Shown here in pieces: positions 13,108-40,595 of a stretch of DNA of 61,002 nt. The notes below the pieces were generated by a model. It was not told the origin of the DNA, made no database searches, and saw nothing but the letters and a program-made list of their open reading frames with translations. The translations under genes and the position numbers were made by a program. The stretch's first letter is position 1. Each line of letters opens with the position of its first letter. This DNA is from a virus (Duplodnaviria > Caudoviricetes). The stretch is from the IMG/VR virus record IMGVR_UViG_3300011115_000173, positions 1 through 61,002 of that record; one strand, given 5' to 3'.

Positions 13108-15573
13108 TTACCCTTTCGGTGGTTGGTTTTTCATTCCCGCCTGTTGGCGGCTTCTTGCGATATCGATGCCCATGCGAACACCGTCTCGTTCTTGGCTGGC
13201 TTGCAGTGTCTTGTCGGCTTGCGTGGCCTGCTGGCCCGCCTTAAACCCATCAAGCTGCATCTTGCCTTCCAGCGCTTGTTTCTTCAGCTCCAGCTCATCC
13301 GCCTTAGTGGCGGCATCAATCTGAAGTTTCTTTTCCTTGAGGTCAACTTCGCGTTCCTTGATCTTCATGTCCTGCTGCTGGAGCTGGATAACTGGGTCTT
13401 GGGCTTGCTGCTGCGCCTGCTGCTGCGCCGCTTGGGCTTGGCTCTGCTGGAGAACCTGCGCCGCCGCCTGCGCCATCATTCCCGACAACGCCAACTCAAT
13501 CTGCGGCGGGAGCTTCTCGTCTTCGGGCGGCAACGGCATACCCAACTGCTGCTCAATCTTCTGGCGGTAGCCAAAGCCAACGTGCTCAGCAATGTGCGCC
13601 ATCATCGCGCCCTGAAGCATCTGCGCCTTGGGGTTTTGTCCCACCAACTGCATGATGATGGGGTCTTGCATTGCAGCCATGTGTACTTTGATGTGCGACT
13701 CGTGGTCTTGGTACATGAACGCCTTGACAGGTGCGCCCTTGAGAATCTCCATGTTCTCCGTCACTGGGTCGCGTGGCTTCTGGTCGTCCGGCAGGGGCAC
13801 CAGCTTGTCTGCATTCTTAATACCCAGTACCTCAAGCATCTGGCGGTGCAGGTACGGCTGGTCGTAAATGGTCGGAGACATCTGCGCCATCTGGATGACG
13901 GCTTGGTACTGCACCACACGCTGGCTCATGGTGGCCGCGTTGGGGTCCGATACAGGAATAATGTCAACGTGGTTGTAGTCCTCGGCCTTGGCTCTACGTC
14001 CGCCTTTTTCTGGCTCGTAGTCGTAGTCTGGGTCGGTGTAGTCGCGTATCAAGCCCGCCAACAGGCGTAGCTCTTGTTTGAAGCTGTAGTGCAGTCGTGC
14101 CTGAACTGCGGACATCACTTTAAGCTGGCGCTCCAGCAGGGCCAGTGTGGTGCCTACGGGCGCGTTAGCCGACATGTCGGCTATCTTCATATCCGCAGTA
14201 GCCGCGAACCTGCGGCCCTCTTCAACGATGGTTCCTAACAGACCCGCCAAGACCTGACTTGGCTCTTTATACGGCAGGGGCAGAATACTGTCGCGCAGCG
14301 TGCCCGAGCCAATGTCTACATCCCGGAACTCGCCGGGGGCAATCGGAGTGTCATCACCCTTAATCCGAAGTCCCCGAGACTTGAGACCTCCGGGGAGGTT
14401 GGACAGGGTGCCCGCATCGACGAGTTGTCGCATGATGCTGGTGGCTGACTTGGCGTAGCCGCCGATGAGGTGGAACAGCCCAAAGCCGTAAGCCCCAAAG
14501 CCGGGGATGTATTGGTAGTGTACGAAGTGCTGGCGCTTGAGGTGTAAATCATCACTCTCAAGCCAGTTGCGTCGAATGGACAAGACATCATTAGTTCCTT
14601 TAATTAGGGTTACTACGTAGGGAAGCGCAATGCCCGTAACTTCCCCGGCTTCATCCTTATCCTCATATCCCGGCAGGTCCAGCTCTACGTGGCACTCCAT
14701 CAGGATATAGCGATCATCGTTCAAATCACTGAAGCCCGTCTCTTTGTCCTTGGCCTTCTCAATGTTGGTCTGCTCCCGGCTCGGGTCACCCAGCTCGATA
14801 TCGCGATAAAAGCCCGCTTGCTGGAGCTTGACGATCTCGTTCTTGGTCTTACGCATGACGTGCGTCACGCGGTAGCACGTATCCAAGTCAGTCGTGCCGT
14901 ACGGCAAGATGATGTCCTCGGCGGGCACAAACATGGACACCTGCCGACCCAGTGAGGGGTCGTAGTACACCTTCTTGAATGCCGAACCCGTGGCAGGCAG
15001 TGACCACAACATGCGTTCATGCTCGGGGCGGAACTCGCGCATCACGTCCGTCAGCTCGTAGTTCATGTCCGACTCAACCCGCTGCGCAGCTTGCTGCTTC
15101 TCAGGGGTCTCTTTACCAAGAATCTTGGTGCGCACCGGGCCTGCGGCTGGGAACGTCTCGGTGATCGTCTCACTCTGAAACCGCACAACGGCTTCGGTAA
15201 TCATGGGGTGGAACACGCCAGACGCTCCGTTCCACGGCTCCGTGCGCTCTTCAATCTGCAAGCCCAGTAGTTTCAAGCCCTCGGTGTAGGCTTTCTCCCA
15301 GTCCTTGCGGGAGTTCCTGTCGTTCTCAATGTCCCCAGCAAGGTCGCCAGCCATCGTCTCTATGGCGCTTGCGTCCATGTCGTCGGCCAGATTGGCATCA
15401 AAGTCGTCTTTAGCGTCGGCTTCAACCTTGGCAAGCTCCAGCTCAAAGCCCGGACCGTGGATGCTGACCCCTTCTGGGTCTACGATCTCAATCTCAATGC
15501 CCTGCTCATCTGCTGCATAGTCGTCTATGCCTTGGGGCTGTTGGTAGAGTGCTTTGTCGATGTTCGTTGCCAT
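13108..15573 (-). CDS. Portal protein (podovirus-type, with Q-rich C-terminal coiled coil)
   Basis: 821 aa directly after terL; GSAFKKVYYD motif; helical C-terminal region. Confidence 0.85.
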   Translation of the reverse strand: MATNIDKALYQQPQGIDDYAADEQGIEIEIVDPEGVSIHGPGFELELAKVEADAKDDFDANLADDMDASAIETMAGDLAGDIENDRNSRKDWEKAYTEGLKLLGLQIEERTEPWNGASGVFHPMITEAVVRFQSETITETFPAAGPVRTKILGKETPEKQQAAQRVESDMNYELTDVMREFRPEHERMLWSLPATGSAFKKVYYDPSLGRQVSMFVPAEDIILPYGTTDLDTCYRVTHVMRKTKNEIVKLQQAGFYRDIELGDPSREQTNIEKAKDKETGFSDLNDDRYILMECHVELDLPGYEDKDEAGEVTGIALPYVVTLIKGTNDVLSIRRNWLESDDLHLKRQHFVHYQYIPGFGAYGFGLFHLIGGYAKSATSIMRQLVDAGTLSNLPGGLKSRGLRIKGDDTPIAPGEFRDVDIGSGTLRDSILPLPYKEPSQVLAGLLGTIVEEGRRFAATADMKIADMSANAPVGTTLALLERQLKVMSAVQARLHYSFKQELRLLAGLIRDYTDPDYDYEPEKGGRRAKAEDYNHVDIIPVSDPNAATMSQRVVQYQAVIQMAQMSPTIYDQPYLHRQMLEVLGIKNADKLVPLPDDQKPRDPVTENMEILKGAPVKAFMYQDHESHIKVHMAAMQDPIIMQLVGQNPKAQMLQGAMMAHIAEHVGFGYRQKIEQQLGMPLPPEDEKLPPQIELALSGMMAQAAAQVLQQSQAQAAQQQAQQQAQDPVIQLQQQDMKIKEREVDLKEKKLQIDAATKADELELKKQALEGKMQLDGFKAGQQATQADKTLQASQERDGVRMGIDIARSRQQAGMKNQPPKG

Positions 15574-15581
15574 GTTGTTCC

Positions 15582-17117
15582 TTAGTAGTAGGCCGCTTTG
15601 CGTCCTCTGTAAATCCTATCGTCTTTCTCGTCGGTATCCAGCGAGATAAACCCACCTTGCCTGAAGCGTAGCAGCGCCTGACTGGTTGTGTCCACGTAGT
15701 CGTCGTTCTCGCCTACCGGGAACGCCGCTACTTCTTCAATGACTTCTCGCGCCCAGCGGGTATCCGGTGCCCAGACAATACCGGACGTGAACAGGTCTGC
15801 AATCGCGTTGACCCGCACCATCTTATCGTTTCCCCGGCTCGGTGTAAATTCTTGTACGGGGATGCCCATCGCCCGTAGCTCTTGGATGAGCGGACCCCCA
15901 GCGGCCTTTTTCTCCACAATAAACGCGTCTGGGTCCCACTCTTTCCAGTGCTTGAAGGCGATCACCTTCAGCTCGGGGAACGCCATCCGGTCTTTAAACG
16001 CGTCCAGCAGCATGAGCTGCGGGGCATTGTTTTCTTCTTCGTTGTACCAAACGCCCCAAGTCGTGCAGGCCGAATAGTCGGAGGTGCTCTTGGTCTCGTG
16101 CGCCGTGTCCCAGCTCTGGATGATGTACTCACAAGGCGGCGGGTCGTCGTGGAGCCAGATGCGCCAACTCTTTCGGCTGATGATGGCCGAAACGTCCGAG
16201 GTCGGCTGCTGCATGTACTGCGCGTTCCAATACCTCGGGTCCATCGACGACTTGGCGGACTTCAAAGACTCCAGAGGCCACTGCTCGGGCCAAAGTGACT
16301 TCTCGTTTTCCGTGCCTTCGTTGAGGATGGCAGGCAGCTCCACGATCTCCCAGCGCGGTGAGTCGGGGTTCTTGACTTGGTAGTCGATCAGCCGCCCGGT
16401 CAGGTCGAGCGGCCCCCAGCGGGTCATCACAACAATAATGGCACCGTTGGGCATCAAGCGCTGGAGCGGGCCTGTCTGGAACCACGACCAAGCCGTGTCA
16501 AACGCTAGACGACTGTTGGCTTTAACGTCTTGTTCTGAGTGGGGGTCGTCGATCATGAACAGGTCAGCGCCCCGGCCTGCCAAGGCTCCACCCACACCAG
16601 CGGCGTAATACTGACCACCGTCAGCCGTTGACCACTTGCCGGAGGCTTTCTGGTCTTGCGCGAGTTTGGTTCCGGGGAACACGGCGTTGTAGTCCTCGTC
16701 CTCCAGCATGTTCCTGACCCGGCGACCAAAGTCTTCCGACAAGGACGCGGTGTGCGTGCCCATGATAATTTTCTTATTAGGGTAATTACCTAGGAAGAAT
16801 GCCGGGAACAAATAACTGCTGAACTCGGACTTACCCATCCTCGGCGCGATATTAATAATGACGCGTTTCTTTTTGCCGTCGATCACGTCTTGGAAAATCT
16901 TGGACAGCTTGCGATGATGGGGGCCAACCTTGAAGCCGGGGTAAACGCGCCGAGCAAAGTCGATCATGTTGGTACGCGAGTTCTTAAGCGACATCCTGCG
17001 ATCGCGCTCTTCCAGCATCTCCATCAGCTCAAGCTTGTTCTTGACCGTCATCGTCGGCAACGCAGCGCGTATGGCCGCGATCTCTTCTGCCTTCAGGTTG
17101 AGTGCGTCAAGCTTCAT
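15582..17117 (-). CDS. terL: Terminase large subunit
   Basis: Walker A PRMGKS, Walker B FMIDD, coupling motif VMTRW, RNase H-like SWDTA...DDYVD. Confidence 0.95.
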   Translation of the reverse strand: MKLDALNLKAEEIAAIRAALPTMTVKNKLELMEMLEERDRRMSLKNSRTNMIDFARRVYPGFKVGPHHRKLSKIFQDVIDGKKKRVIINIAPRMGKSEFSSYLFPAFFLGNYPNKKIIMGTHTASLSEDFGRRVRNMLEDEDYNAVFPGTKLAQDQKASGKWSTADGGQYYAAGVGGALAGRGADLFMIDDPHSEQDVKANSRLAFDTAWSWFQTGPLQRLMPNGAIIVVMTRWGPLDLTGRLIDYQVKNPDSPRWEIVELPAILNEGTENEKSLWPEQWPLESLKSAKSSMDPRYWNAQYMQQPTSDVSAIISRKSWRIWLHDDPPPCEYIIQSWDTAHETKSTSDYSACTTWGVWYNEEENNAPQLMLLDAFKDRMAFPELKVIAFKHWKEWDPDAFIVEKKAAGGPLIQELRAMGIPVQEFTPSRGNDKMVRVNAIADLFTSGIVWAPDTRWAREVIEEVAAFPVGENDDYVDTTSQALLRFRQGGFISLDTDEKDDRIYRGRKAAYY

Positions 17118-17745
17118 CGGCTTCTGATGTTAGTGAGTGCTCACTCTGTTTTAACGGTTCTACGTCCGTTATGTCGGGTTTGATCTCGCCGGAAGTTGCC
17201 TCTACATCGACCACGTTGAGCAGCGTGTCGAGCTTGTCTTGGAGCTTCTTGTCGATCTCGGCGTCGGTCATGTCCGTTTTGGTGACCGATACGCGGTCCG
17301 TGAACAGCGCCACTTCCGTGACCCGGCCCAGCATCTCGATGGCCTTGAGCCGAATCCGAGCGTCTGGGTGGTTGGTCTCCTCAATGATTTTGGCGACCGC
17401 CATTCCGCGCATCTGTTTGGCCTGCTCGACGAATTCCCAGTCATAGGCTGACAGCATGGTGACGAGGTGACGCACTGACTCAGGGGTCTTAAGCAGCGTC
17501 AACTGCGTTTTGGTGTCGTTGGGTGCCGTGTTGTTAGTTAACGCAGCGAAGACGGTACGTGCGGCCTTGGCTTCGGCTTCCTGAAGAATCTTGTTGTCGT
17601 CGTCAACACCAAGCTGCTCTAACCACTTCGTTGTATTGACCTGTGCGTTCAGCGTTTGCTCGGGCGTGGCTTTATCCAGACCGGAAACGTCTTTGCCTGT
17701 GGCCTCTACCACCGGGGGTTCAAAAGAAATCAGATGCTCAAACAT
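17107..17745 (-). CDS. Putative terminase small subunit
   Basis: Helical protein overlapping the terL start; RLKAIEMLG; start taken at MFEHL (an in-frame GTG at 17814 is an alternative). Confidence 0.65.
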   Translation of the reverse strand: MFEHLISFEPPVVEATGKDVSGLDKATPEQTLNAQVNTTKWLEQLGVDDDNKILQEAEAKAARTVFAALTNNTAPNDTKTQLTLLKTPESVRHLVTMLSAYDWEFVEQAKQMRGMAVAKIIEETNHPDARIRLKAIEMLGRVTEVALFTDRVSVTKTDMTDAEIDKKLQDKLDTLLNVVDVEATSGEIKPDITDVEPLKQSEHSLTSEADEA

Positions 17746-17757
17746 GCGCGTAGTACC

Positions 17758-17805
17758 TTGCGGACTCGGAGCCTGTAATGTACACTGCTTTTTAGGTAGT
17801 GTCTG
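17758..17805. promoter_or_regulatory. Overlapping divergent sigma70-type promoters
   Basis: Plus strand: TTGCGG(17758-63)-17-TACACT(17781-86). Minus strand: CAGACA(17805-800)-17-TACATT(17782-77). The two -10 boxes overlap. Confidence 0.55.
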
Positions 17806-17877
17806 TGTTTTCACAGTCGTTGCTTCTCCTCCGATGGCTGAAAATCCATCTTTGCCCGGTTCGCCGGGCATTTTTTT
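17793..17877 (+). ncRNA. Candidate small RNA with an anti-RBS loop
   Basis: Promoter, then a 9-bp stem (17814-22/17832-40, three G-U pairs that only form on the plus strand) with loop CUUCUCCUC, then an intrinsic terminator. Confidence 0.55.
17853..17877 (+). terminator. Intrinsic terminator
   Basis: TGCCCGG-TTCG-CCGGGCA followed by T7. Confidence 0.8.
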
Positions 17878-17886
17878 GTGTGTATT

Positions 17887-17902
17887 TGTCTACTGTTAGA
17901 CA
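17887..17902. promoter_or_regulatory. Palindromic operator-like site 1
   Basis: TGTCTA-CTGT-TAGACA; related copies at 26577 and 35494. Confidence 0.6.
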
Positions 17903-18208
17903 GAATTTAGCTTAATTTTTGCAAAATTTTGTGGGGTATGGGCTAATTTTTGGGTGCCGGGGGGTGTTTCTGTAGGTGCTTTGTTTGCAATTTAAGGCTA
18001 ATTTGGGTGTGATTTATGGATGATTAGACAAAAATTGAGATGATGGGAGGGGAATAGTGTTCATGTGGGACGGCCCTAGCTTGCCCTGTATTGCTTGGTG
18101 GGGGGCGGGTGGGGTTCGCCATACCCGTTTACGCCCCTATAGGCGCGCGAATTTACCCCATTCTTACAATAGAGTTAGCGGTTAGGGGGTTCCTAGCCGC
18201 ATAACCAA

Positions 18209-18225
18209 CGGGTCACAGTGACCCG
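18209..18225. repeat. 17-bp palindrome CGGGTCAC-N-GTGACCCG, copy 1 of 6
   Basis: Other copies at 18632-18648, 18701-18717 (degenerate), 19391-19407, 20651-20667 and 21846-21862. Confidence 0.9.
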
Positions 18226-18244
18226 AACCTAAGAGGTAATTCAA

Positions 18245-18625
18245 ATGTCAACAGGAAACAAAGCACTGGCTTTCCAAACCCTCAACACCTTTGCAGATAG
18301 CAGGGTCGCACTCATCAGGGGGATGCGGGATGCGGGGTACACGTTGGAGACGGCACGCGGTGTCGTCATCGAATGGGCTTGCGGCAAGGTAGGTTCTGGC
18401 ATCAAGGGGTTCAAGGTCAACGAGGAGACGGGCAAGGTGTCGCTCATTACGAGCCATGCCAAGTACGAGAAAGCCAAGACCACGGTGCGCGACACCATGC
18501 TGATGCTGGCGGGGACAACCCGCCGCCAGTCCAGTAGCAAGGAGATTGACCTTGTTGCCGAGGCTCTCAAGGCATACGGCAAGCTCAATGCCGCGCAGAA
18601 GCGCAAGTTCTTGGCTTCTGTTTGA
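18245..18625 (+). CDS. First early protein, function unknown
   Basis: 126 aa; GAGG RBS; preceded by TACAAT at 18165-18170 and flanked by palindromes. Confidence 0.75.
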   Translation: MSTGNKALAFQTLNTFADSRVALIRGMRDAGYTLETARGVVIEWACGKVGSGIKGFKVNEETGKVSLITSHAKYEKAKTTVRDTMLMLAGTTRRQSSSKEIDLVAEALKAYGKLNAAQKRKFLASV

Positions 18626-18659
18626 TTCTTTCGGGTCACGGTGACCCGTTTTCTGTCCG

Positions 18660-18698
18660 CCGCCCTGCCAATCGGGTTGGGGCGGTATTCTTTTCTTT
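18660..18698 (+). terminator. Possible intrinsic terminator/attenuator
   Basis: Bulged CCGCC/GGCGG and CCAA/TTGG stem followed by TATTCTTTTCTTT. Confidence 0.45.
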
Positions 18699-18815
18699 GT
18701 CTAGTCACTGTGACCCGAAAACGGTTCTACCCTGAAGCACAGCACGCTGTGCTTTGGAGTGCGACCAGCACGACCGCACCGGACGGTATCCGGAATCCTT
18801 AATGGAGATAGCAAT

Positions 18816-19154
18816 ATGTTCAAACTCAACCTGTTTACCCGGCTAACCCACCGCTACGCGGACGGCTGGCGACACCTCGACGACGAGGAATTTACTGGCA
18901 CGGTCAAGGTGCTGGGCATCACACACGAGACCGAGGACGGGGGCTACGATGACGGCGGGACTGCCCGCTTCCGGGTGGTTGCGCCCTCGGCGCTCAAGGG
19001 AGCAGACCTGTCCCAGTCCATACGCCAGACGCTCAGCGGCAGTGGATGCCGTCATGAGTACGACTGCTGCGGCTGCGCCTCGACACGGGCTAGCGTCAAG
19101 CGTGTCAGCCCCAGAGAGTACGCCGTCAAAGTTTCCATCAGCTACAACTACTAG
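18816..19154 (+). CDS. Early hypothetical protein with Cys/His cluster
   Basis: GGAGA RBS, start MFKLN; CRHEYDCCGC motif. Confidence 0.75.
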   Translation: MFKLNLFTRLTHRYADGWRHLDDEEFTGTVKVLGITHETEDGGYDDGGTARFRVVAPSALKGADLSQSIRQTLSGSGCRHEYDCCGCASTRASVKRVSPREYAVKVSISYNY

Positions 19155-19164
19155 GAGAAATGAA

Positions 19165-19386
19165 ATGAGAAAAGCAACCCGGACAATCGTCCACGTAGGC
19201 ACTATCCAAACCCCGTCAGGGGCATGGAATCTGTACGACCAGTACCCCACCAGCAGGCGCGACTTCAAGATAACCTCGGCGGTTCCTGTGGGCAAGCCCA
19301 CGCAGGGTATCGCCTTCACTTGTGACCTCGCCTTCGAGCGCTGGCTGGCTGAGCGCATGACCCCGACTCAACGGGTGTTGTTCTGA
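19165..19386 (+). CDS. Early hypothetical protein
   Basis: AGGAGAA RBS, start MRKATRT. Confidence 0.65.
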   Translation: MRKATRTIVHVGTIQTPSGAWNLYDQYPTSRRDFKITSAVPVGKPTQGIAFTCDLAFERWLAERMTPTQRVLF

Positions 19387-19438
19387 AATTCGGGTCACGG
19401 TGACCCGCTTGCAGCGCGGAACAACCGAAATGCAAACG

Positions 19439-19820
19439 TGGTATATCAGTCGGGCAAGAAGTGTTGTATAAAAACCACTGTCCGGGGTGTCCACTGATAT
19501 ACCAGATTCATTTTCAAATACGGACACGCGCAACCCGCATGGATGCTAACGTCTGGGGGTTTAGTGTCCGTACTACTACTAAATATTTTTATTATTATAT
19601 ATAGTATAGAGAGTGTATATATTTTTTCTTCCGCGCTTGTTTTCTTTCTTGCTTTTAAGCTTTGGCTAGCTCCTTCTGTATGGCGAACAGTACTTCGGAC
19701 ACAAACTTCGAAAAGCTAGTATCCATGCGGGTTGCGCGTGTCCAAAAACGGGAATAGAATTGGTATTTAAATGGACAGTTCAAAAAAGCTGGACACTTTC
19801 GTAACCCAACTCTGGTATAT
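19439..19820. other. Candidate replication origin
   Basis: Non-coding; perfect 23-bp inverted repeat (19522-44/19721-43) around an AT-rich core; multiple GGACA/TGTCC pentamers. Confidence 0.55.
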
Positions 19821-19823
19821 AGC

Positions 19824-20663
19824 ATGAAATACCCCAAAAGCTTCTACAGTATGTCGGTCGCTGCCATGCGCAGCTACCTCATAAAACGCAACGTGCCCCC
19901 CGAGCTTATCGATGGGCTAATCACCGAAGAGCAGACCAGACGCGATGAGACGCGCCCCTTGCGCAAGAAGCGTGAGCAGCACATCAGGCTATGGCATCAG
20001 ATAATCGACCCGGCTGTGGCCGAGCTACGCAACGTGCAGCATATGCTGCGACTACCCCTGCTGTACCCTACACCTGAACGCACCGCTGCGCTCGAAGCCT
20101 ATGCCAAGGTGCTCGAACTGCTCATCGACAAGCTCAAGCAGAACGTGGACAAGATAAAGCGCAGCGATGCCGATACCGCTGACGACCTCCTGACCCCTAG
20201 CAGGCAGGCTAGCAAACCCACACGGGCATTCCCACACGGCAAGCCCAACGGGGGAACGCATTGGGTGGACTACGTGCCGCCCAACATCGTCCGGGAGATA
20301 AACGCCCTGTTCGACTCGATTCCCCGAGTAAAGGGGGTCAAGCGCAAGTACCCCTTCCTTGTCGTACTTGACCGAGCCACCAGCGCTAAACGTAGGCAAG
20401 CCCTGACCGAGCGTACACAAAACGAGCTGACCCACGTCGAGCGTCTCCTCGCGGTCGAGCTTGCCGATGCTAGGTTGACCGACACCCATGTGTTCAAGCA
20501 GCAGGAGATAGCTGACCTGCGCATCCAGATAAGCAAGATGCAGTACGCCCTGCACATCATCAGCCTGCTGCCCCCGAACGCCTTCATACCCCCGACATGG
20601 CACGGGGTGATGACCCCACGCACAGCACCGGGCGAGTTCCCTATCAACAAAGGGTCACAGTGA
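19824..20663 (+). CDS. Early hypothetical protein
   Basis: 279-aa basic helical ORF; its stop codon lies inside a palindrome copy. Confidence 0.7.
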   Translation: MKYPKSFYSMSVAAMRSYLIKRNVPPELIDGLITEEQTRRDETRPLRKKREQHIRLWHQIIDPAVAELRNVQHMLRLPLLYPTPERTAALEAYAKVLELLIDKLKQNVDKIKRSDADTADDLLTPSRQASKPTRAFPHGKPNGGTHWVDYVPPNIVREINALFDSIPRVKGVKRKYPFLVVLDRATSAKRRQALTERTQNELTHVERLLAVELADARLTDTHVFKQQEIADLRIQISKMQYALHIISLLPPNAFIPPTWHGVMTPRTAPGEFPINKGSQ

Positions 20664-20718
20664 CCCGAAACCAAAACGGTCAGCAGCCTGCCGTCTCAGG
20701 CTGCACATTAATTGGAGA
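20652..20718 (+). repeat. 67-bp palindrome-hairpin-RBS cassette, copy 1
   Basis: Identical to 21847-21913. Confidence 0.95.
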
Positions 20719-20724
20719 AGAGAA

Positions 20725-21842
20725 ATGACCAAAGAGAAACTTATCAACCGCGTTCTAGCGCAAATGCAGCGCGACATAGACGCACAAGACTGGACGGCAA
20801 TCGAGGGGCTGCTTGCCCACACACCGGAGCAGCACCTGCAAGGGTTTCTGTCTGAGTTCGAACAAGAGCGCGAGGACACGCCGCGCTCCACCTACATGTC
20901 AGCGAGGGAGTCAGCCATCGATGAGCAAGCCGCTGAGTATGACGATATGTTTGACGAACAAGGAGACGAGAAATGAAGTTTGCTTACATCCCCAAGGGGG
21001 ACTACCGCATCGGGCAGGTCTTGCAAGTACACGGCAAGCCCATGCGTGTCGAGAGCTTTTCATATACAGGCAAGAATTTTAGAGCGACAACACTTGAGGG
21101 AGCGCCGGACTTCGAGCGCATCGTCTGTATCTGCACTGATGAACAACCAATCGAGGAGAAGAGAAATGACTGACTTTGAGTTTTACTTCTTGATGATTGT
21201 CATCAAGGTATGTGCGCTTGCTGCGCTGGTCGTCCCGTATTACTTTAACTAAGGAGAAGAGAGATGCAAGTTTATTCTGTGCTGGAAGACCACCTGTGTG
21301 ACGACCACTACTACAAGGCAAGCCCCCACACTGTCGCCATCTACGCAACCAAAAAAGCCGCGCAGCTTGCCGTAGCTAGGTACAAGAGGGAATGCAAACG
21401 CAAGCTTGAGAAAAGCGAAGAAGAAAACACGCGCACCATTGACGGGGTAGTGTACCGCTCGATGGACTTGGAGTACGTGAAGTGCAACACATACAGGTAT
21501 GTGCCCAAGGATAAGTACGACTACAGCGCGATGTGGGAACGCTACCCCGAGCGCTGGATTAAAGAAGACGCAGTGATTGAATAACCAAAGGAGAACGACA
21601 TGGCACAAATGAAATTTTCAAACGGCGCTTGGCACTTGAGCGATGACTGGTCTATCGAGGACGTGCGTAACGTCATCGACTGCGACAACATCGAGGACGC
21701 AGAAGACTTCACGGACGAGGACTGCGTGAGGGTACTTGAGCTGGTGGTCGATGCGTTCGATGCCAACATCGGCGTTAACTGGGAGGTCATCGGCGCAGCC
21801 GTTGACATGGTGGTTCAAGACAAACAAAGGGCGCTGAAATAA
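20725..21842 (+). other. Five small early CDS (20725-20976, 20973-21173, 21166-21252, 21264-21584, 21600-21842)
   Basis: Each is preceded by an RBS containing GGAGA; tightly packed between the two 67-bp repeats. Confidence 0.7.
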
Positions 21843-21846
21843 AACC

Positions 21847-21913
21847 GGGTCACAGTGACCCGAAACCAAAACGGTCAGCAGCCTGCCGTCTCAGGCTGCA
21901 CATTAATTGGAGA
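21847..21913 (+). repeat. 67-bp palindrome-hairpin-RBS cassette, copy 2
   Basis: Identical to 20652-20718. Confidence 0.95.
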
Positions 21914-21919
21914 TACAAC

Positions 21920-23374
21920 ATGAACATAGGCACATCAGAAAAAGCCATCAACTTCTGCCGAGCAGCAGAAATAGTCTGGCACACTCGCATCTGGCATCAA
22001 AACCTACAGCGCAAGCACAACCTGCACCCCGCAGTCGAGTACGCCTTCAGTCTCGCTGACCCGCAGGACTGGCAGCGCTTGCTGCTGGAGTGGCCTCACG
22101 TAGCGGAGACGGATGAAACCCGCGCGGCCTACACACGGGACGAGCGGGCAGGCGTGGACGACAAGCAGACGCTGACCAGTCTGGGCAAGTACATCAAGCG
22201 GCACTGGCCGGATATGCCTGACCACATCATCCGGGACATGGTTGCCAAGTACGGCACGGCATCTAGCTTTCGCATCGAGCACACCACCGAGGCCATCGTC
22301 AGGGCGGTGTAGGAGGGGCCATCGTCTTGCATGAAGTTCGTTGACGATGATGGTAACGAAGACTACATCGATGAGCTGGGGCATCACCCCTATGAGACAT
22401 ACGCTCCGAAGTATGGCTGGCACATTGCCACACGTATCATGCACAACAGTATCGTGGGCAGGGCGCTACTCATGCAGCGCAACAATGATGCAAGCAAACC
22501 CAAGTACTTCGTGCGTACCTACAGACATCGCGATGGCGAGACGTACTCGCAGCCCGATGACGAGCTGATTCAGTGGCTCATCGGGCAGGGGTATGAGTAC
22601 CAATGCTCTTGGCTGGGTGAGCGGCTGGCGCTCCTGTCCAGCAATCACAGAAACGCGGAGTTCATTGCCCCGTACATCGACGGTGGTGCGCAGGAGGTGG
22701 ACATTGACCATGGCTACCTCAACCCATCAGACCAGCAGCGCACCAAGTGCCTCGTCATCACAAACAGCGGCGAGTATCGATGCTGCAACACGGACGGTAC
22801 GCCGGACGAGAACAACAGTTGCGCCTGTGCAGATTGCGGTAGACGTGTACATGAGGACGACACACGCCACATCGGCTACCACTCGGACAGGATGGTGGGT
22901 GACTGCTGCATCGATGCCTACACATATGTCACTGGGCGCAGGAGCAGTGAATACTACATCTCCGACGACAATGCTGTGGAGGTGGACGGCAAATACTACG
23001 ACGAAGAGTATCTTGAGGATAACGGCATCGTGACGCTGCACGATGGGAAGTATGCGCTGGCTGACAACTCGGTGTATGTCGAGAGCAAGTCAGATTTCTA
23101 CCTACTTGATGACTGCGTGTGCCTACCCGATGGCGAGTACGAGGTAGCCGAGGACTGCGTGGAGCTGCACGATGGTAACTGGGCGCTGATTGATGACTGC
23201 GTGGAGCTAGCCAACGGTTGGTGGGTGCTGGAGGAGGATGCGTGGGAGTGTGCCGGGTCAGGCAAGTGGTATCTCAAGGACGAGGAGCTGGCGGTGCTCG
23301 TCAACGGTGAGCTTTACCACGCGGCCTATGCTCCCAAAAATACAATTGAAGTAACCAAGGAAGTATCATGCTAA
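21920..23374 (+). pseudogene. Early gene interrupted by one in-frame TAG (or two adjacent CDS)
   Basis: ORFs 21920-22312 and 22331-23374 are in the same frame, joined by RAV*EGPSSCMK; C-terminal CxxC and CVxLxDGxW/Y repeats. Confidence 0.55.
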
Positions 23375-24495: not shown

Positions 24496-24524
24496 CTTTG
24501 GATATCGGTATTCACCGTTGGAAA

Positions 24525-24567
24525 CGGTTTGCAGCCTGCCGTCTCAGGCTGCGCATTAATTGGAGAA
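24525..24567 (+). repeat. 43-bp hairpin-RBS cassette, copy 3
   Basis: Identical to 24847-24889; shares the GCAGCCTGCCGTCTCAGGCTGC..ATTAATTGGAGA core with the 67-bp repeat. Confidence 0.95.
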
Positions 24568-24572
24568 ACAAC

Positions 24573-24839
24573 ATGACTATTAAATTGAGAAAAGCAAAAG
24601 AGACCGCAATCAACCCAGACCACATGCCGAAGGACACACACTTCTACGCAGCCAGCGTAGCGGACTGGGCGACAACGAACGATACGCGTGACTTGCGTGC
24701 GCTCATCAAGCTGATGGAGAAGTTCGGCTACTCATACAACTTGTGGCTCGTGCCCCTGCCGTTTAACGCGGACTACGACATCAAGATGTACCAGCCCCAA
24801 GTTAAAGGGGTGCAGTGGCTGGGTTACTACAAGGTATAG
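24573..24839 (+). CDS. Early hypothetical protein
   Basis: Start MTIKLRK after the cassette RBS; bounded by two 43-bp repeats. Confidence 0.7.
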   Translation: MTIKLRKAKETAINPDHMPKDTHFYAASVADWATTNDTRDLRALIKLMEKFGYSYNLWLVPLPFNADYDIKMYQPQVKGVQWLGYYKV

Positions 24840-24846
24840 AGGTTAT

Positions 24847-24889
24847 CGGTTTGCAGCCTGCCGTCTCAGGCTGCGCATTAATTGGAGAA
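24847..24889 (+). repeat. 43-bp hairpin-RBS cassette, copy 4
   Basis: Identical to 24525-24567. Confidence 0.95.
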
Positions 24890-24893
24890 GTAA

Positions 24894-26574
24894 ATGAAAA
24901 CAGTAACGATAGGCTTTATGCGCGAGGACGGGGACATTCAAGTCCTTGCCACGCTGAACAACAACGACGACACCACAGACGAGGTGCATTTCAGACTGTT
25001 TGTTGCGGTCGTCAAATCAAATTGGCAGCGGCTCTCAGGAGAGAACGTCGAAGTGTTCGAGCGCCAAGATGCGCCGGACTATGTAACACCAGAAGGAGAA
25101 AGCAAAGTGAACGATATGAACGAAGACCAAACGCTCAAGGTAGCGCTCTTGATGGAGAGGGTAGGCGGCAGCTTCGCTGCGTCGATAGCTAAAGCATGGA
25201 TAGTGGGGGACAGCAGCAACAAACGACGGGTGTATGCCGCGTTCCCGGAACTGTTCGAGAAGTATGCGGCGTGGGTAAAGGAGGAGATTTGAAATGACTA
25301 TGCTCACACAACCAAACCAAATCGCACTGTTCCGCTTGATGACACTACGCGGTATGCTTTCTCTGGAGGTCAGAGGCATGACCCGCAGGGGTCGTTCGGC
25401 GTACGCCATCATCAACTCCTTGTTGGAGCTGAAGGATAAGAAAGCATGGGCGATGGTTCATCCATCGTTCGTCACATGGGCTCGCGAGAACCAGTACATG
25501 TTTGCTGGCCTCAAGGGATAAACCGACAATTTAAAGGATTAAAACCATGACTTACGATAAATTAATTACTTATTACGCTAATCAACGCACGCGCTTGCTG
25601 CGCGAATTACTGAGTCAAGATTACGGCAAATACCGCATCACGCGAAACAACGAAATTTACGTTTACGGAAAAATGCCGGGCAGTATTGTGATCGGCTGGC
25701 GGTTGCTGGGCACGCGCCGGGAAGTTGAAAACAATTATCAACTTTAAGTACTAACATGAGCAACAAGCACAGCTCGTACACCCCGGCAGAACGAGCTGGT
25801 GACCATGCGTTTGCGTACGACAGCAAAGACGTAGGGCGCAAGTTCTGGCTTGAGGTCGTGCAGATAATCCGCAAAACAGAGAAAGGAAACTGAAATGAAA
25901 ACGTACCAAGTAGAACTCAAGCGCGTCAGCTACGTGACCATGACCGTGGAGGCAGAGACCGAGGACGCAGCCGAGGATGCGGCGTGGGACGAACTTGCAT
26001 CAGACGGGAGCTGGAACGACAGCAATGCAAGTTGGACAGTAGAAAGTATTGAGGAGGATTCAAAATGAACGCACTTGACTACTGCCAACACGAGGGGCAA
26101 TACGCATGGTGGGAACACGATGCGCAAGGCATACCGCTATGCAAGGTGTGTGAGCTATGTGCTGCGCACAAGCTCAGCAAGTATCGGCCCGAGATTCTTG
26201 AGGGCTACGACCAGAGCGATGTAGATGAACCAATCGAGGAGAACTGAAATGAAACTGAAACCAGTAGAAGTTGTCGAGCGGGTAGTGCTGCTGCTTGCCA
26301 TGATTGTCGTAGCGCTTGACCTCTTAGTGTGGAGGCCGTGATGGATATCAACACCAAGCAAGGCATGGCTGCGGCCAAGGCATGGACGGAGCAGCTACTC
26401 AGTACGCTCAACGATGGGGGGACGTGGGCAGTGCCCCGGTCTGGCACCATCATTCGTTTCGACAAGGCGAACAAGAAGGCGCTGGTTATCCACCAGATGT
26501 CCCCGGACATATCCATAGAGCGCGTGCTGGAGGCTATGGGGTGGGAAATTACTTACAAAGATAGTGAGCACTAA
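24894..26574 (+). other. Eight small early CDS (24894-25292, 25294-25521, 25547-25747, 25756-25893, 25895-26068, 26065-26247, 26249-26341, 26341-26574)
   Basis: Head-to-tail ORFs, most with an RBS; three read directly from sequence because they fall below the ORF-track size cutoff. Confidence 0.65.
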
Positions 26575-30666: not shown

Positions 30667-32633
30667 CCGCACCCTACGACCAGATAGTAACCATCGACTT
30701 TGAAACGGTCTGGTACCGCAAGACAGGCTACTCGCTTTCTATGATGACAACAGAGGAGTACATACGCCATGATGACTTTCACGCTTTTGGAGCGTGTACC
30801 CATTTATTTGGAAGCGATGAACCAACTGAGTGGGTACGAGGACACGACCTACATAAACACCTTCAGCAGTACGATTGGGGACGAACCGCCATCCTTGCAC
30901 ATAACGCACAGTTCGACGTATCAATACTCGAATGGGTCTACGGAGTACGACCCGCCTTTATCTTCGACACCTTATCAATGGCGCGGGCTTTACGCGGCGT
31001 GGAGGTTGGCAATAGTCTCGCCAGACTTGCAGCAGATTTTGGTCTTCCCGCTAAAGGGACAGCCGTATACAGTACAGAGGGACTCAATACACTTTCCCCT
31101 GCGCTTGAAGCCGAACTCGCTGAATACTGCAAACACGACGTATATCTCTGCGAACAAATTTTTCAACGCCTTGTTGAAGGATATCCGGCGAAAGAGTTAC
31201 GGCTAATCGACATGACGCTCAAGATGTACACACGCCCTGTGCTGGAGCTGGACAGCGCCATGTTGGTCGATGCCATACACACCGAGAAAGAAGCCCGCGA
31301 AGCGCTACTCACAAGGCTCAACGTGGACGAGGCGGTGCTTGCATCGAACCCAAAGTTTGCTGCCACACTGGAGGCGCTCGGTGTACCCGCTCCGCGCAAG
31401 ACGAGTAAGACGACAGGCAAGAGCACCCTTGCACTGGCAAAGAGCGATGCGATGTTCCAAGCCCTGCTCAACGGGGAGAACGAAGACGTAGCGCTTTTGT
31501 GCGAGGCGCGGCTGAAGGTCAAGTCAACAACCGAGCGTACACGGGCACAACGCTTTCTGGACATCAGCAAGCGCGGGGCGCTCCCGGTTCCTCTGAGCTA
31601 CTACGGAGCCAGCACGGGTAGGTGGACAGCCAGCAAGGGCAGCGCCATCAACATGCAGAACCTAAAGCGCGGCTCGTTCCTGCGCAAGTCAATCATGGCT
31701 CCGGCTGGGCACCAGCTTGTTGTAGGTGACCTGTCTCAGATTGAGCCACGGGTGTTAGCGTGGCTGGCGGACTACGAAGAGATGCTTGACATCTTCCGCG
31801 CAGGAAGTGACCCCTATGCTGCTTTCGGTGCTCAGATGTTTGACATCCCCGGCTTGACCAAGGAGAGCCACCCAGACCTTCGCCAGTCGGCAAAGTCGGC
31901 GCTGCTGGGCTGCGGGTATGGCCTAGGCTGGGCTTCGTTTGCATCGCAGCTAACAACAGGGTTTCTGGGTGCGCCGCCTGTGCGTTACAGCGGCTCGTTT
32001 GCGCGGCAACTGGGCGTTACCAAGAAAGGGGCGATTACATTCTTGAAGTGGCTGGACACAGAAGCCAAGCTACGGAACATCCCGCACACATGCAGCATAG
32101 ACGAGTTGGTTCTCCACTGTCTCGCTGCTAAGGCCATCATCGACAAGTACCGCCGAGCCGCTGCGCCAGTGGTAGCGCTGTGGGAACTGTTTGGGAACTT
32201 GATTCAGCACAGCCTGTACGAAGGCAACGAGTACACCCACAAGTGCGTGACCTTCAAGAAGGGTGAGATTGTGCTGCCCTCGGGTATGAGCCTGCTGTAC
32301 CCCGACCTTACGCCGGGGAAAGACGAGCAGGGAAGATTGCAGTGGACATACGGCGCAGATAAGACTAAACTGTATGCAGGAAAAATAACCAACAATGTCA
32401 CGCAGGGCGTAGCGAGATGCGTGATGACTGATGGGATGCTCAGAACCGCGAAGAGGTACTTCGTGGCTGGAACCGTGCATGACGAGCAACTTGTCGTTGT
32501 GCCGGATGAGGAGGTTGCTGACGCTAAGACTTGGGTCTTGGCGCAGATGACTATGGAGCCGAAGTATATGCCGGGCATACCTTTGGCTGCGGACGGCGGC
32601 GCACACAGGCGCTATGGATTGGCAAAGAACTAA
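30663..32633 (+). CDS. polA: Family A DNA polymerase with 3'-5' exonuclease domain
   Basis: Exonuclease DFET, HNAQFD, YCKHD; motif A DLSQIEPR; motif B RQSAKSALLGCGYG; motif C VHDE; TTG start. Confidence 0.92.
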   Translation: MTAPYDQIVTIDFETVWYRKTGYSLSMMTTEEYIRHDDFHAFGACTHLFGSDEPTEWVRGHDLHKHLQQYDWGRTAILAHNAQFDVSILEWVYGVRPAFIFDTLSMARALRGVEVGNSLARLAADFGLPAKGTAVYSTEGLNTLSPALEAELAEYCKHDVYLCEQIFQRLVEGYPAKELRLIDMTLKMYTRPVLELDSAMLVDAIHTEKEAREALLTRLNVDEAVLASNPKFAATLEALGVPAPRKTSKTTGKSTLALAKSDAMFQALLNGENEDVALLCEARLKVKSTTERTRAQRFLDISKRGALPVPLSYYGASTGRWTASKGSAINMQNLKRGSFLRKSIMAPAGHQLVVGDLSQIEPRVLAWLADYEEMLDIFRAGSDPYAAFGAQMFDIPGLTKESHPDLRQSAKSALLGCGYGLGWASFASQLTTGFLGAPPVRYSGSFARQLGVTKKGAITFLKWLDTEAKLRNIPHTCSIDELVLHCLAAKAIIDKYRRAAAPVVALWELFGNLIQHSLYEGNEYTHKCVTFKKGEIVLPSGMSLLYPDLTPGKDEQGRLQWTYGADKTKLYAGKITNNVTQGVARCVMTDGMLRTAKRYFVAGTVHDEQLVVVPDEEVADAKTWVLAQMTMEPKYMPGIPLAADGGAHRRYGLAKN

Positions 32634-32639
32634 GGAGAA

Positions 32640-32969
32640 GTGATGGAAAAGAAAGCAGTAAGACATCCGATACCGCGCAGGATGCGCATCGGCAAGAAAA
32701 TGTACTCAGTTGAGATTGTGGAGGCCATGCTTGAGAAGCGCCGTAAGGGCACCATCAACTACACGGCGCAGACAATCAGGCTGGGGCAGCGCAGCAACGT
32801 GACGAACAAGGCGTTCCAACCAGAGCAATTGCAGGAGACTTTCTGGCACGAAGTTATCCACGGCATCCTGTACGACATGGGACGCAGCACACTGAACCGG
32901 GACGAGCGCTTCGTCAGCGAGTTCGCATACCGACTGACCAAGGCAATTAACTCAGCGAGGTTTGAATGA
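32640..32969 (+). CDS. Small HExxH metallopeptidase-like protein
   Basis: ETFWHEVIHGIL...DERFV. Confidence 0.6.
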   Translation: MMEKKAVRHPIPRRMRIGKKMYSVEIVEAMLEKRRKGTINYTAQTIRLGQRSNVTNKAFQPEQLQETFWHEVIHGILYDMGRSTLNRDERFVSEFAYRLTKAINSARFE

Positions 32970-35466: not shown

Positions 35467-35509
35467 TTGCAAAAACAGAATTCGCATGTAAACTGTCCAA
35501 CCTTAGACA
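35467..35509 (+). promoter_or_regulatory. Sigma70-type promoter overlapped by operator-like site 3
   Basis: TTGCAA-16-TAAACT, with TGTCCA-ACCT-TAGACA (35494-35509) covering the start region. Confidence 0.6.
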
Positions 35510-35528
35510 AATAATACAGGAGAAGTTA

Positions 35529-35933
35529 ATGACCACAGAAGTTATCCCCCTCGACAAGTTAGCGAAGGTCTATCGAAAGATTCGCAGCGAAATCGAAACG
35601 CTGACCAGAGAGTACGACACGCAAGTGGAGTTGCTCAAGGCCACGCAAACCGACATCAAGCACGCAATGAAAGACCAGATGCAAGCGCTTGGTGTCACCT
35701 CAGTCAACACGCCGCAAGGCACAGTTGTCTTGTCGATCAAAACACGCTACTCAACATCGGACTGGGATTCGTTCAAGACCTTTGTGATGCAGCATGAAGC
35801 GCTCGACCTTTTTGAGAAACGAATTGCCCAATCCAACATGAAGCAGTTTCTCGAAGAAAACCCCGGCGTTCTGCCGCCCGGACTTAACTCCAATGCAGAG
35901 TTCGATATCAGTGTAAGAAAACCATCCAACTAA
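35529..35933 (+). CDS. Replication-module coiled-coil protein
   Basis: N-terminal coiled coil, TPQGTV, DWDSF, LPPGL. Confidence 0.7.
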   Translation: MTTEVIPLDKLAKVYRKIRSEIETLTREYDTQVELLKATQTDIKHAMKDQMQALGVTSVNTPQGTVVLSIKTRYSTSDWDSFKTFVMQHEALDLFEKRIAQSNMKQFLEENPGVLPPGLNSNAEFDISVRKPSN

Positions 35934-40447: not shown

Positions 40448-40595
40448 ACGGGGGCAGGGGTTTTTTGTCCCCTGCCTCGACACGCAAGCCGTGCGCATCA
40501 AGGGCTTGAACGTTGCTTTGAGATACCGGGATGCCCGCGCTATTGCGGGCATCCGTAACGGCCTCATCGGGGTGTGGTTCTATCGGCTAGGCTAA
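40410..40595 (+). CDS. Small putative DNA-binding protein, last gene of the early arm
   Basis: FPW...GQGFFVP...GVWFYR; overlaps both the primase end and the convergent giant gene. Confidence 0.5.
   Translation: MSYSIRFPWDKTERGQGFFVPCLDTQAVRIKGLNVALRYRDARAIAGIRNGLIGVWFYRLG

Follow-up and report, generated by a model that had tools for sequence, protein, structure and literature searches.

A probable new small RNA family at the divergent junction of uncultured freshwater phage genomes, with a conserved core complementary to early and middle ribosome-binding sites

The Burkholderia anti-hemB RNA (RF02837) and the Betaproteobacteria toxic small RNAs (sRNAs; RF02278) are short independent transcripts in which a pyrimidine motif complementary to the Shine-Dalgarno (SD) sequence is followed by a GC-rich intrinsic terminator, and they can address several mRNAs via the ribosome-binding site (RBS). 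RsaE/RoxS of staphylococci and Bacillus are further C/U-rich anti-SD sRNAs. Phages, too, encode small RNAs that block the access of ribosomes to phage mRNAs, namely P22 sar, P1/P7 c4, and lambda OOP, which are cis-encoded or have a single dedicated target in the immunity circuits of temperate phages. For c4, one report places the action at or near the RBS of ant (PMC12197685), and noncoding RNAs of unknown role are mentioned for virulent phages in another (PMC10914365). Here, we describe a predicted sRNA of about 84 nt (17794..17877, plus strand) in a linear virus record of the IMG/VR database, whose 61,002 bp are referred to as the window. The 5' end of the sRNA was deduced from the position of the -10 hexamer and its 3' end from that of the U-tract. 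The locus is the only divergent junction of this genome, since it is here that the minus-strand packaging arm meets the plus-strand early arm. Together with its promoter, the sRNA occupies positions 17758-17877, and based on sequence comparison we consider this unit very probably a real RNA gene that represents a new sRNA family.

With anti-hemB and the toxic sRNAs, the phage sRNA shares the short independent transcript, the SD-complementary pyrimidine motif, the GC-rich terminator behind it, and the possibility to address several mRNAs via the RBS. However, it is a member of neither family (19.0 bits vs. 49.5 for RF02837 and 17.6 vs. 50 for RF02278), and a search of the whole window against Rfam 15 resulted in no match at the gathering thresholds, the best sub-threshold matches over the locus reaching 12-20 bits compared to thresholds of 38-105, with CU-rich sRNAs of Burkholderia as the nearest look-alikes. 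While the bacterial RNAs carry their CU-rich motif in a hairpin loop, the phage sRNA carries it in a linker between two helices and in the adjoining stem base. It also differs from the bacterial anti-SD sRNAs in being encoded by a lytic-type phage and in having a seed that runs past the SD sequence into the spacer, where it matches the early/middle RBS consensus of the phage itself. In contrast to sar, c4, and OOP, it is antisense to no coding gene, lies away from its candidate targets, and would address many genes by a shared RBS word. In the literature searched (subscription journals and supplements lay outside its scope), we found neither an sRNA in this phage group nor a phage sRNA directed against the phage's own early RBS class.

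A covariance model (R1) built from 18 sequences revealed a single match in the window (17794-17878, 76.8 bits). It also matched 67 of 80 loci retrieved via the gene for the large terminase subunit (terL), with one copy per locus, on the same strand and at the same place throughout, and divergent from the putative gene for the small subunit (terS). Ten of the 13 loci that were missed had no upstream DNA, and the other three (L043, L053, and L079) carry visibly diverged versions. By itself, the terL scan revealed at least 599 relatives. Apart from that, a scan with a bare DNA pattern returned at least 120 stretches. Among the 79 new loci listed, 42 were matched by the model, each with a divergent terS 32-79 nt away, and the other 37 were taken as chance matches. 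Cultured phages are distant with respect to terL, the identity being at most 51.5% for DSL-LC04 and the pelagiphages HTVC023P and HTVC027P, and model R1 found no match in the terL neighbourhoods of DSL-LC04 and HTVC027P (L084 and L085). At the nucleotide level, a search of the phage collection with positions 17000-19000 resulted in zero matches and thus no cultured relative. In the orientation of the window, the layout shared by the relatives starts with a -35 TTG, exactly 17 nt, the near-palindrome AGTGTACACT, a variable 5' stem, and TTGCTTCTCCT, followed by a hairpin of changing sequence, CTT, a GC hairpin, and T6-9. This layout is common to relatives whose terS is only 44-90% identical, and because promoter, fold, core, and terminator are all kept across that range, the unit is conserved far beyond chance. 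An earlier note on this DNA had described a self-contained plus-strand unit with its own promoter and terminator, of which all letters are present and conserved across relatives. It had also expected relatives to keep the loop sequence and the terminator; in the relatives, the core is invariant and a hairpin with U-tract is conserved, though a hairpin followed by at least six T at the 3' end was itself the criterion by which the 58 aligned sequences were selected (five loci with enough upstream DNA were dropped).

The RNA is predicted to fold into two stem-loops upstream of the terminator hairpin. SL1 (17795..17824, plus strand) consists of an outer stem (17795-17801/17818-17824) with four G-U pairs and an inner hairpin (17803-07/17812-16), and in SL2 (17833..17850, plus strand) GAUGG (17833-37) pairs with CCAUC (17846-50) around an 8-nt loop. 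In the fold of the window sequence, the CUCCUCC linker between SL1 and SL2 is free. The minimum free energy (MFE) of this RNA was -30.5 kcal/mol (z = -5.0), while the opposite strand reached -24.8 kcal/mol (z = -3.7) without the outer SL1 stem. Alignment with MAFFT followed by RNAalifold on all 58 sequences gave no structure, as the loops were misaligned, and was replaced by a model-guided alignment with 59 distinct rows, on which the following statistics are based. In the family fold, 87.8% of the cells were paired compared to 70.6% after shuffling (none of 500 shuffles reached 87.8%) and to 43-64% with slid partner columns, and the three-hairpin fold revealed a covariation score of 0.50 vs. 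0.22 for shuffled alignments. Double changes were detected in 15 of the 18 pairs. SL2 was paired to 95.3% with compensatory changes in all five pairs, its stem sequences being wholly different between clades, and the outer stem of SL1 was paired to 93.1% with changes on both sides in six of seven pairs. Many of the changes in SL1 are wobble-compatible (G-U to A-U, C-G to U-G) and preserve pairing on the plus strand only. Exactly two hairpins follow 3' of the core in 53 of 55 sequences. About ten relatives (L029, L030, L032, L034, L035, L039, L044, L059, L061, and L072) harbor an additional GGCC-loop-GGCC hairpin apically in SL1, which lengthens the RNA to about 110-130 nt and leaves the rest of the fold undisturbed.

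Independent of any alignment, the plus-strand fold was the more stable one in all 58 sequences, by 8.0 kcal/mol on average, and G-U pairs accounted for 246 of 1628 pairs on the plus strand vs. 42 of 1404 on the minus strand, which is what selection on a plus-strand RNA predicts. The same strand had been favoured before, on the basis of G-U pairs in a 9-bp stem (17814-22/17832-40). This stem can indeed form, with three G-U pairs around CUUCUCCUC, but it does not represent the conserved fold according to our models: it was hardly better paired on the family alignment than on shuffled ones (73.9% vs. 69.4%; covariation 0.21 vs. 0.18), was absent from both the MFE and the centroid fold, and competes with SL1 and SL2. 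It may be a minor alternative conformer. The core, once placed in the loop of this 9-bp hairpin, is divided in the conserved fold, with CUCCU in the inter-hairpin linker and UUGCUU in the base of SL1.

This core, UUGCUUCUCCU (17820..17830, plus strand; complement AGGAGAAGCAA), is the proposed seed. Among the 58 sequences, TCTCC is invariant and CTTCTCCT is conserved to at least 90%. CUCCU was predicted to be unpaired (probability >0.8) in 54 of 55 sequences, while UUGCUU was mostly paired (unpaired probability <0.3) in 47 of 55, where it closes the weak, G-U-rich SL1. RBSs of the form GGAGAA(G) abound in the plus-strand arm of the window but are rare in its late arms, and four plus-strand sites are candidate targets, all of them present as listed in the earlier note apart from the position of one start codon. 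The first, GAGGAGAAG (21153..21161), precedes ATG 21166, which opens a frame of 28 codons only. The other three read AGGAGAAG and were found at 21252..21259 (ATG 21264, 106 aa), at 32633..32640 (108 aa; duplex of -17.8 kcal/mol), where the start codon is ATG 32643 and not 32640 as given before, and at 35518..35525 (ATG 35529, 134 aa). Orthologues of gene 32643 in relatives G003, G004, and G005 carry GGAGAAGCA at the RBS, and in those of gene 35529 in G001, G002, and G004 the ATG is immediately preceded by the full AGGAGAAGCAA. Across the genomes of five relatives, this 9-mer, GGAGAAGCA, occurred 25 times compared to five times for the reversed word. With the exception of the sRNA loci and some three others, the occurrences are RBSs located 1-7 nt before early/middle open reading frame (ORF) starts (50-499 aa), many of which extend to the full AGGAGAAGCAA. 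Downstream of GGAGAAGCA we counted 20 distinct frames of at least 45 aa, all but one being plausible early/middle-arm genes, and several are orthologous to window genes 35529, 32643, 33899 (helicase), and 29540.

For a comparison of early and late start regions, we used four genomes, a simple gene caller, and only starts with a recognisable SD sequence. The median energy of the duplex between seed and start region was -12.6 kcal/mol for early (n=111) vs. -9.05 kcal/mol for late genes (n=112; Mann-Whitney p = 6e-11), with p about 1e-3 for the same difference within each of the four genomes. Contiguous matches of at least 7 nt were found in 39 of 111 early and 6 of 112 late start regions, whereas the match to the generic anti-SD complement was equal (5.27 nt early, 5.18 nt late). 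When UUGCUU was swapped for random 6-mers, one in 400 paired as well with the early starts and one in 400 revealed an equally large gap between early and late; among 30 permutations, the real 6-mer ranked first. Thus, complementarity of the core to the RBSs of early/middle genes is much greater than to those of late genes, as had been proposed. With its own promoter and terminator, no coding gene to which it is antisense, a conserved accessible seed, and start-region sites conserved in orthologous targets, the RNA has several of the features by which a trans-acting, RBS-occluding sRNA is recognised.

Based on these features, we infer that the sRNA is transcribed, pairs with its targets in vivo, and lowers their expression at a certain time of infection. 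Host sigma70 RNA polymerase would transcribe it from TTGCGG-17-TACACT, the other face of this symmetric, probably bidirectional promoter would drive terS and the late operon, and the strong intrinsic terminator would end the transcript just before the early promoter. The RNA would then fold as SL1, a single-stranded CUCCU(C) linker, SL2, and the terminator hairpin. Exposed CUCCU would nucleate on the SD sequence of early/middle mRNAs, and pairing would spread into the weak, G-U-rich base of SL1, so that UUGCUUCUCCU would cover AGGAGAAG(CAA) up to the start codon. This would block 30S binding and lower the translation, and probably the stability, of many early/middle messages. Late messages, with RBSs such as AGGAGCT or AGGAGTG, would pair over about 5 nt only and be largely spared. 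With regard to timing, the sRNA would accumulate with, or compete against, the firing of the late promoter. The sRNA is shared by a large clade of uncultured freshwater phages, and that it represses early/middle translation via the RBS is a reading we hold with moderate confidence.

Several points weigh against it. Half of the seed is sequestered in SL1, and the matches in the window end at 8-9 nt (AGGAGAAG followed by AGA, TGA, or TTA), shorter than those in the relatives. The co-variation of seed and RBS that had been predicted was not seen in the one variant genome tested: G002 harbors a variant core with an extra base, UUGCUCUCUCCU, without a matching shift of its RBSs, and its own core even paired less well than the canonical one (-10.35 vs. 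-11.05 kcal/mol). Other clades with variant cores are represented by L017/L021/L023/L036, L037, L041/L046, and L060/L062. The A-rich AGGAGAAGCAA could also be favoured as an optimal RBS irrespective of the sRNA. Counts of 8-mers that do not depend on gene starts gave 39 real vs. 10 reversed words for the early arms and 55 vs. 74 for the late arms, a comparison that is confounded because late-arm coding sequence is purine-rich, and the gene starts themselves come from a crude home-made caller. As regards the fold, the alignment behind the pair counts was fitted to the model, which makes the figures generous, and the sequences are related, so that the shuffle statistics overstate their independence.

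In T4, the endoribonuclease RegB inactivates many early mRNAs at the SD sequence GGAG and aids the transition from early to later expression. RegB would be a functional analogue, but it is a protein nuclease, whereas the phage sRNA would read its address by RNA-RNA pairing and discriminate by the bases 3' of GGAG. A bolder and rather doubtful extension is a phage-wide "RBS address code", in which one RNA of about 85 nt from the back face of the late promoter would read AGGAGAAG(CAA) and silence the early/middle messages together at the onset of late expression. Late genes would escape because their RBSs diverge right after GGAG. If true, this would be an RNA counterpart of T4 RegB across hundreds of abundant freshwater phages, and an sRNA that addresses a whole temporal class via a shared RBS word would be a new logic of phage developmental timing; how early/middle shut-off is timed is poorly understood in lytic phages without their own RNA polymerase. 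Short of that, the locus would add an RNA family with conserved promoter, fold, seed, and terminator in a large uncultured freshwater phage clade.

As an alternative to a role on its own early genes, the RNA might be real but act on host mRNAs via their SD sequences in the manner of Hfq-dependent sRNAs, or titrate an RNA-binding protein. A U-rich stretch separates SL2 from the terminator, and the RNA ends in U7-9, a kind of tail that is typically found in RNAs bound by Hfq. The exposed CUCCU could pair with the SD sequence of any mRNA, the core does not vary among phages whose hosts probably differ, and the sub-threshold look-alikes in Rfam are bacterial CU-rich sRNAs. Nevertheless, we regard this explanation as unlikely, as the non-SD half of the core is tuned to the flanks of the phage's own early RBSs, which one in 400 random extensions achieved, and the 11-nt match is kept by orthologous phage genes.

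The promoter brings in a second alternative. The -35 hexamer TTGCGG (17758..17763, plus strand) is followed by a 17-nt spacer and the -10 hexamer TACACT (17781-86, plus strand), a predicted promoter of the sigma70 type (TTGnnn, TAnnnT, 17 +/- 1 bp). On its own, the window promoter is weak, with 7 of 12 consensus positions, and it was missed by a 9-of-12 promoter scan. Among 58 dereplicated relatives, however, the -35 TTG was located exactly 17 nt upstream of the -10 in 53, and TAyACT was kept in 55, with TAAACT, TATAGT, and one mis-anchored row as exceptions. This spacing stays fixed while the distance to the terS ATG varies between 32 and 79 nt, and therefore the TTG is not simply the SD sequence of terS read backwards. 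The -10 is part of the near-palindrome AATGTACACT (17777..17786), which on the complement holds a terS-facing TACATT (17777-82), and the four bases upstream of the -10 that complete this second hexamer are conserved as well. The palindrome thus provides a TAyAyT hexamer per strand with an overlap of 2 bp, so that divergent start sites are predicted about 23-24 bp apart (near 17794 and 17770), and 17777-17786 is probably the core of a bidirectional promoter for the sRNA on one side and terS with the late operon on the other. A possible -35 in the terS direction, CAGACA (17800..17805, minus strand), lies 17 nt from TACATT, as judged from its letters; the relatives harbor TTGCGC or TTGCAC at 16-18 nt on that side, irregularly spaced in a table with some rows out of register. 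The predicted geometry resembles that of bidirectional sigma70 promoters of the Warman/Grainger type, which have a palindromic -10, TAnnnT per strand, a -35 on either side, and divergent start sites spaced by 10, 18, or 23 bp at overlapping -10 hexamers, so that a spacing of about 23-24 bp would fall into one of the common classes. A 23-bp start-site class in bacteria in which the two polymerase orientations are mutually exclusive has been described (PMC12825309). The phage promoter differs in being predicted from sequence and in that one product would be a conserved structured sRNA rather than an mRNA or a spurious transcript, a natural example of such a promoter with a functional RNA as its second product.

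The shared palindromic -10, the described competition between orientations at a start spacing of about 23 bp (PMC12825309), and the near-consensus early promoter directly after the terminator in most relatives would all suit a transcript that is a by-product or interference device of a symmetric late promoter, where RNA polymerase bound in the direction of the sRNA would occlude the terS promoter or vice versa, with a terminator that insulates the early promoter and an RNA without function in trans. A mere by-product, though, would keep neither an invariant 11-mer nor two covarying hairpins with wobble-only substitutions on one strand, nor a seed matched to the early RBSs, and we therefore think this distinctly improbable.

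A third explanation depends on where terS begins. The putative terS (17107..17745, minus strand, 212 aa) is named by position only, as it lies directly upstream of terL and overlaps the terL start, and it revealed zero PHROG or Pfam family matches. Its coding region begins 49 nt from the sRNA on the opposite strand. The earlier note had considered GTG 17814 as an alternative terS start, with the minus-strand GGAGGAG as its SD sequence. In this case, late or terS transcripts would include the region or start upstream of it, and the sRNA would be a cis-antisense RNA that pairs perfectly with their leader. The frame of the window is indeed open from 17871 to terS, a few database proteins possess the extension (P0001 and P0002, 245-246 aa), in about 60% of the relatives, according to a tally by eye, AGGAGAAGCAA on the terS strand is followed 3-5 nt later by ATG or GTG, and one relative (L045) harbors a tRNA gene upstream on that strand. 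However, tblastn homology of terS begins at M43 of the 254-aa frame, i.e., at ATG 17745, in 72 of the 78 loci with a match, the other six matches being truncated by the end of the locus, and at the same ATG in all 42 loci retrieved independently by pattern. Most of the 120 listed terS homologues have a length of 208-223 aa, and the 254-aa frame is covered by them to about 82%. Therefore, the extension to 17814 or 17871 is not conserved as protein, and by homology the true terS start is ATG 17745 and neither 17871 nor 17814, so that the alternative start fails. The upstream stretch varies in frame and length among the relatives, whole-hairpin insertions occur in it, and the shared motif GTGTACAC appears in different frames when read by hand. 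As pairs 8-65 and 9-64 reveal, the "ATG" positions change together with the 5' arm of SL1. In addition, read in the direction of terS, the sRNA gene precedes the terS-facing -10, so the two transcripts would not overlap, and inspection by eye of the relatives' 150-nt stretches revealed no conserved leftward promoter, though no leftward promoter scan was run. Altogether, a cis-antisense RNA appears very unlikely. A small ORF at the sRNA locus on either strand was likewise rejected, since neither the frame nor the length is constant and the possible start positions covary as base pairs.

The far end of the unit is formed by a predicted intrinsic terminator (17853..17877, plus strand) with a GC stem, a short loop, and an immediate U-tract. 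It consists of a 7-bp stem (17853-59/17864-70, six GC pairs), a UUCG loop, A, and U7, its letters being GCCCGG-UUCG-CCGGGC (17854-69), A, and T7 (17871-77). It has the form of a terminator in the plus direction only and was also picked up by a terminator scan. Right after it follows the 16-bp palindrome TGTCTACTGTTAGACA (17887..17902, plus strand), with its right half as the -35 of what is probably the first early promoter. Most relatives have TGTCnAnCGTTnGACA, a gap of 17-18 nt, and TATAAA(T), a near-consensus rightward early promoter, so that the sRNA forms a unit insulated from both the late and the early promoter region on either side. This order also recalls the lambda late leader, in which promoter, short RNA, terminator, and operon follow each other. 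Accordingly arranged, the phage locus has a promoter, a short structured RNA, a terminator, and a long same-strand operon, and transcripts might stop at the terminator or, under antitermination, read into the early arm like the 6S RNA of lambda PR'-tR'. With a near-consensus promoter of its own for the first early gene, located past the terminator in most relatives, no antiterminator gene identified among the phage genes, and the RBS-matched invariant core left unexplained, the probability of such an attenuator is small indeed. Hardly credible, finally, is a DNA element in place of an RNA (a pac site, a terS-binding site, or an origin by the packaging genes), for although pac sites often lie in or beside terS and conserved motifs and inverted repeats are found at the 5' end of terS, G-T wobble would be of no benefit to duplex DNA, changes are tolerated in the helices only if pairing on one strand is preserved, and a canonical terminator hairpin with T-run is preceded by a correctly spaced promoter.

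Some further observations concern the region past the terminator. The right half of the 17887-17902 palindrome reads TTGACA or TAGACA in most relatives and forms a symmetric, operator-like -35, while the clade of the window harbors TGCAAA instead of TATAAA at the early promoter (17887-17925). A word similar to a half-site of this palindrome, TTAGACAAA, precedes the AGGAGAAG RBS of gene 35529 by about 10-15 nt (35500-35530 in the window) and was found likewise at the orthologous sites in G001, G002, G004, and G005. In two relatives, the early-promoter block is replaced by a gene on the terS strand just past the sRNA terminator, namely a tRNA-Met gene (L045:2985-3058) and a tRNA-like gene with a 4-base anticodon (L031:2932-3004). 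The window itself harbors no tRNA gene.

In regard to its overall organization, the genome in the window is estimated to be 94% complete. Structural and packaging genes occupy the minus strand between about 17,745 and position 1, including a called portal gene (13108-15573, minus strand) and terL (15582-17117, minus strand; phrog_38, 3.6e-98). The plus strand carries replication and other early/middle genes (18245-40447), followed by a second minus-strand block (40564-61002). A phage or virion RNA polymerase was looked for among the proteins of the window and was not found. The largest candidate, an ORF of 3021 aa (40564-49629, minus strand), revealed a C-terminal LPD38 "large polyvalent protein" domain only (3e-35) and zero PHROG matches, and it probably encodes an injected polyvalent protein and not an RNA polymerase. 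The 20 sequencing runs listed for positions 15000-21000 of the window were all DNA, from viral, riverine, and freshwater metagenomes.

Apart from the sRNA locus, the early arm displays several repeats. The palindromic hairpin GGTCACnGTGACC occurs in six copies, one of them mismatched, within the first 3.7 kb of the arm (18211-18223, 18634-18646, 18703-18715, 19393-19405, 20653-20665, and 21848-21860) compared to 0.15 expected, and these hairpins could be terminators, processing sites, or operator sites. A module repeated in the 5' untranslated region of early genes (20650-20725 and 21845-21920, with 3' halves at about 24510-24573 and 24832-24894) comprises a GGGTCAC hairpin, AAACCAAAACGGT, a hairpin CAGCCTG...CAGGCTG, and CACATTAATTGGAGA, with the ATG 5-6 nt further on; GCRCATTAATTGGAGA, which belongs to this module, was found four times vs. 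0.03 expected. In the intergenic stretch 17925-18020, we detected three copies of GCTAATTT(TT)GGGTG-like words, and many relatives share the conserved box GGGGAATAGTGTTCA (18049-18063) in the intergenic region on the early side.

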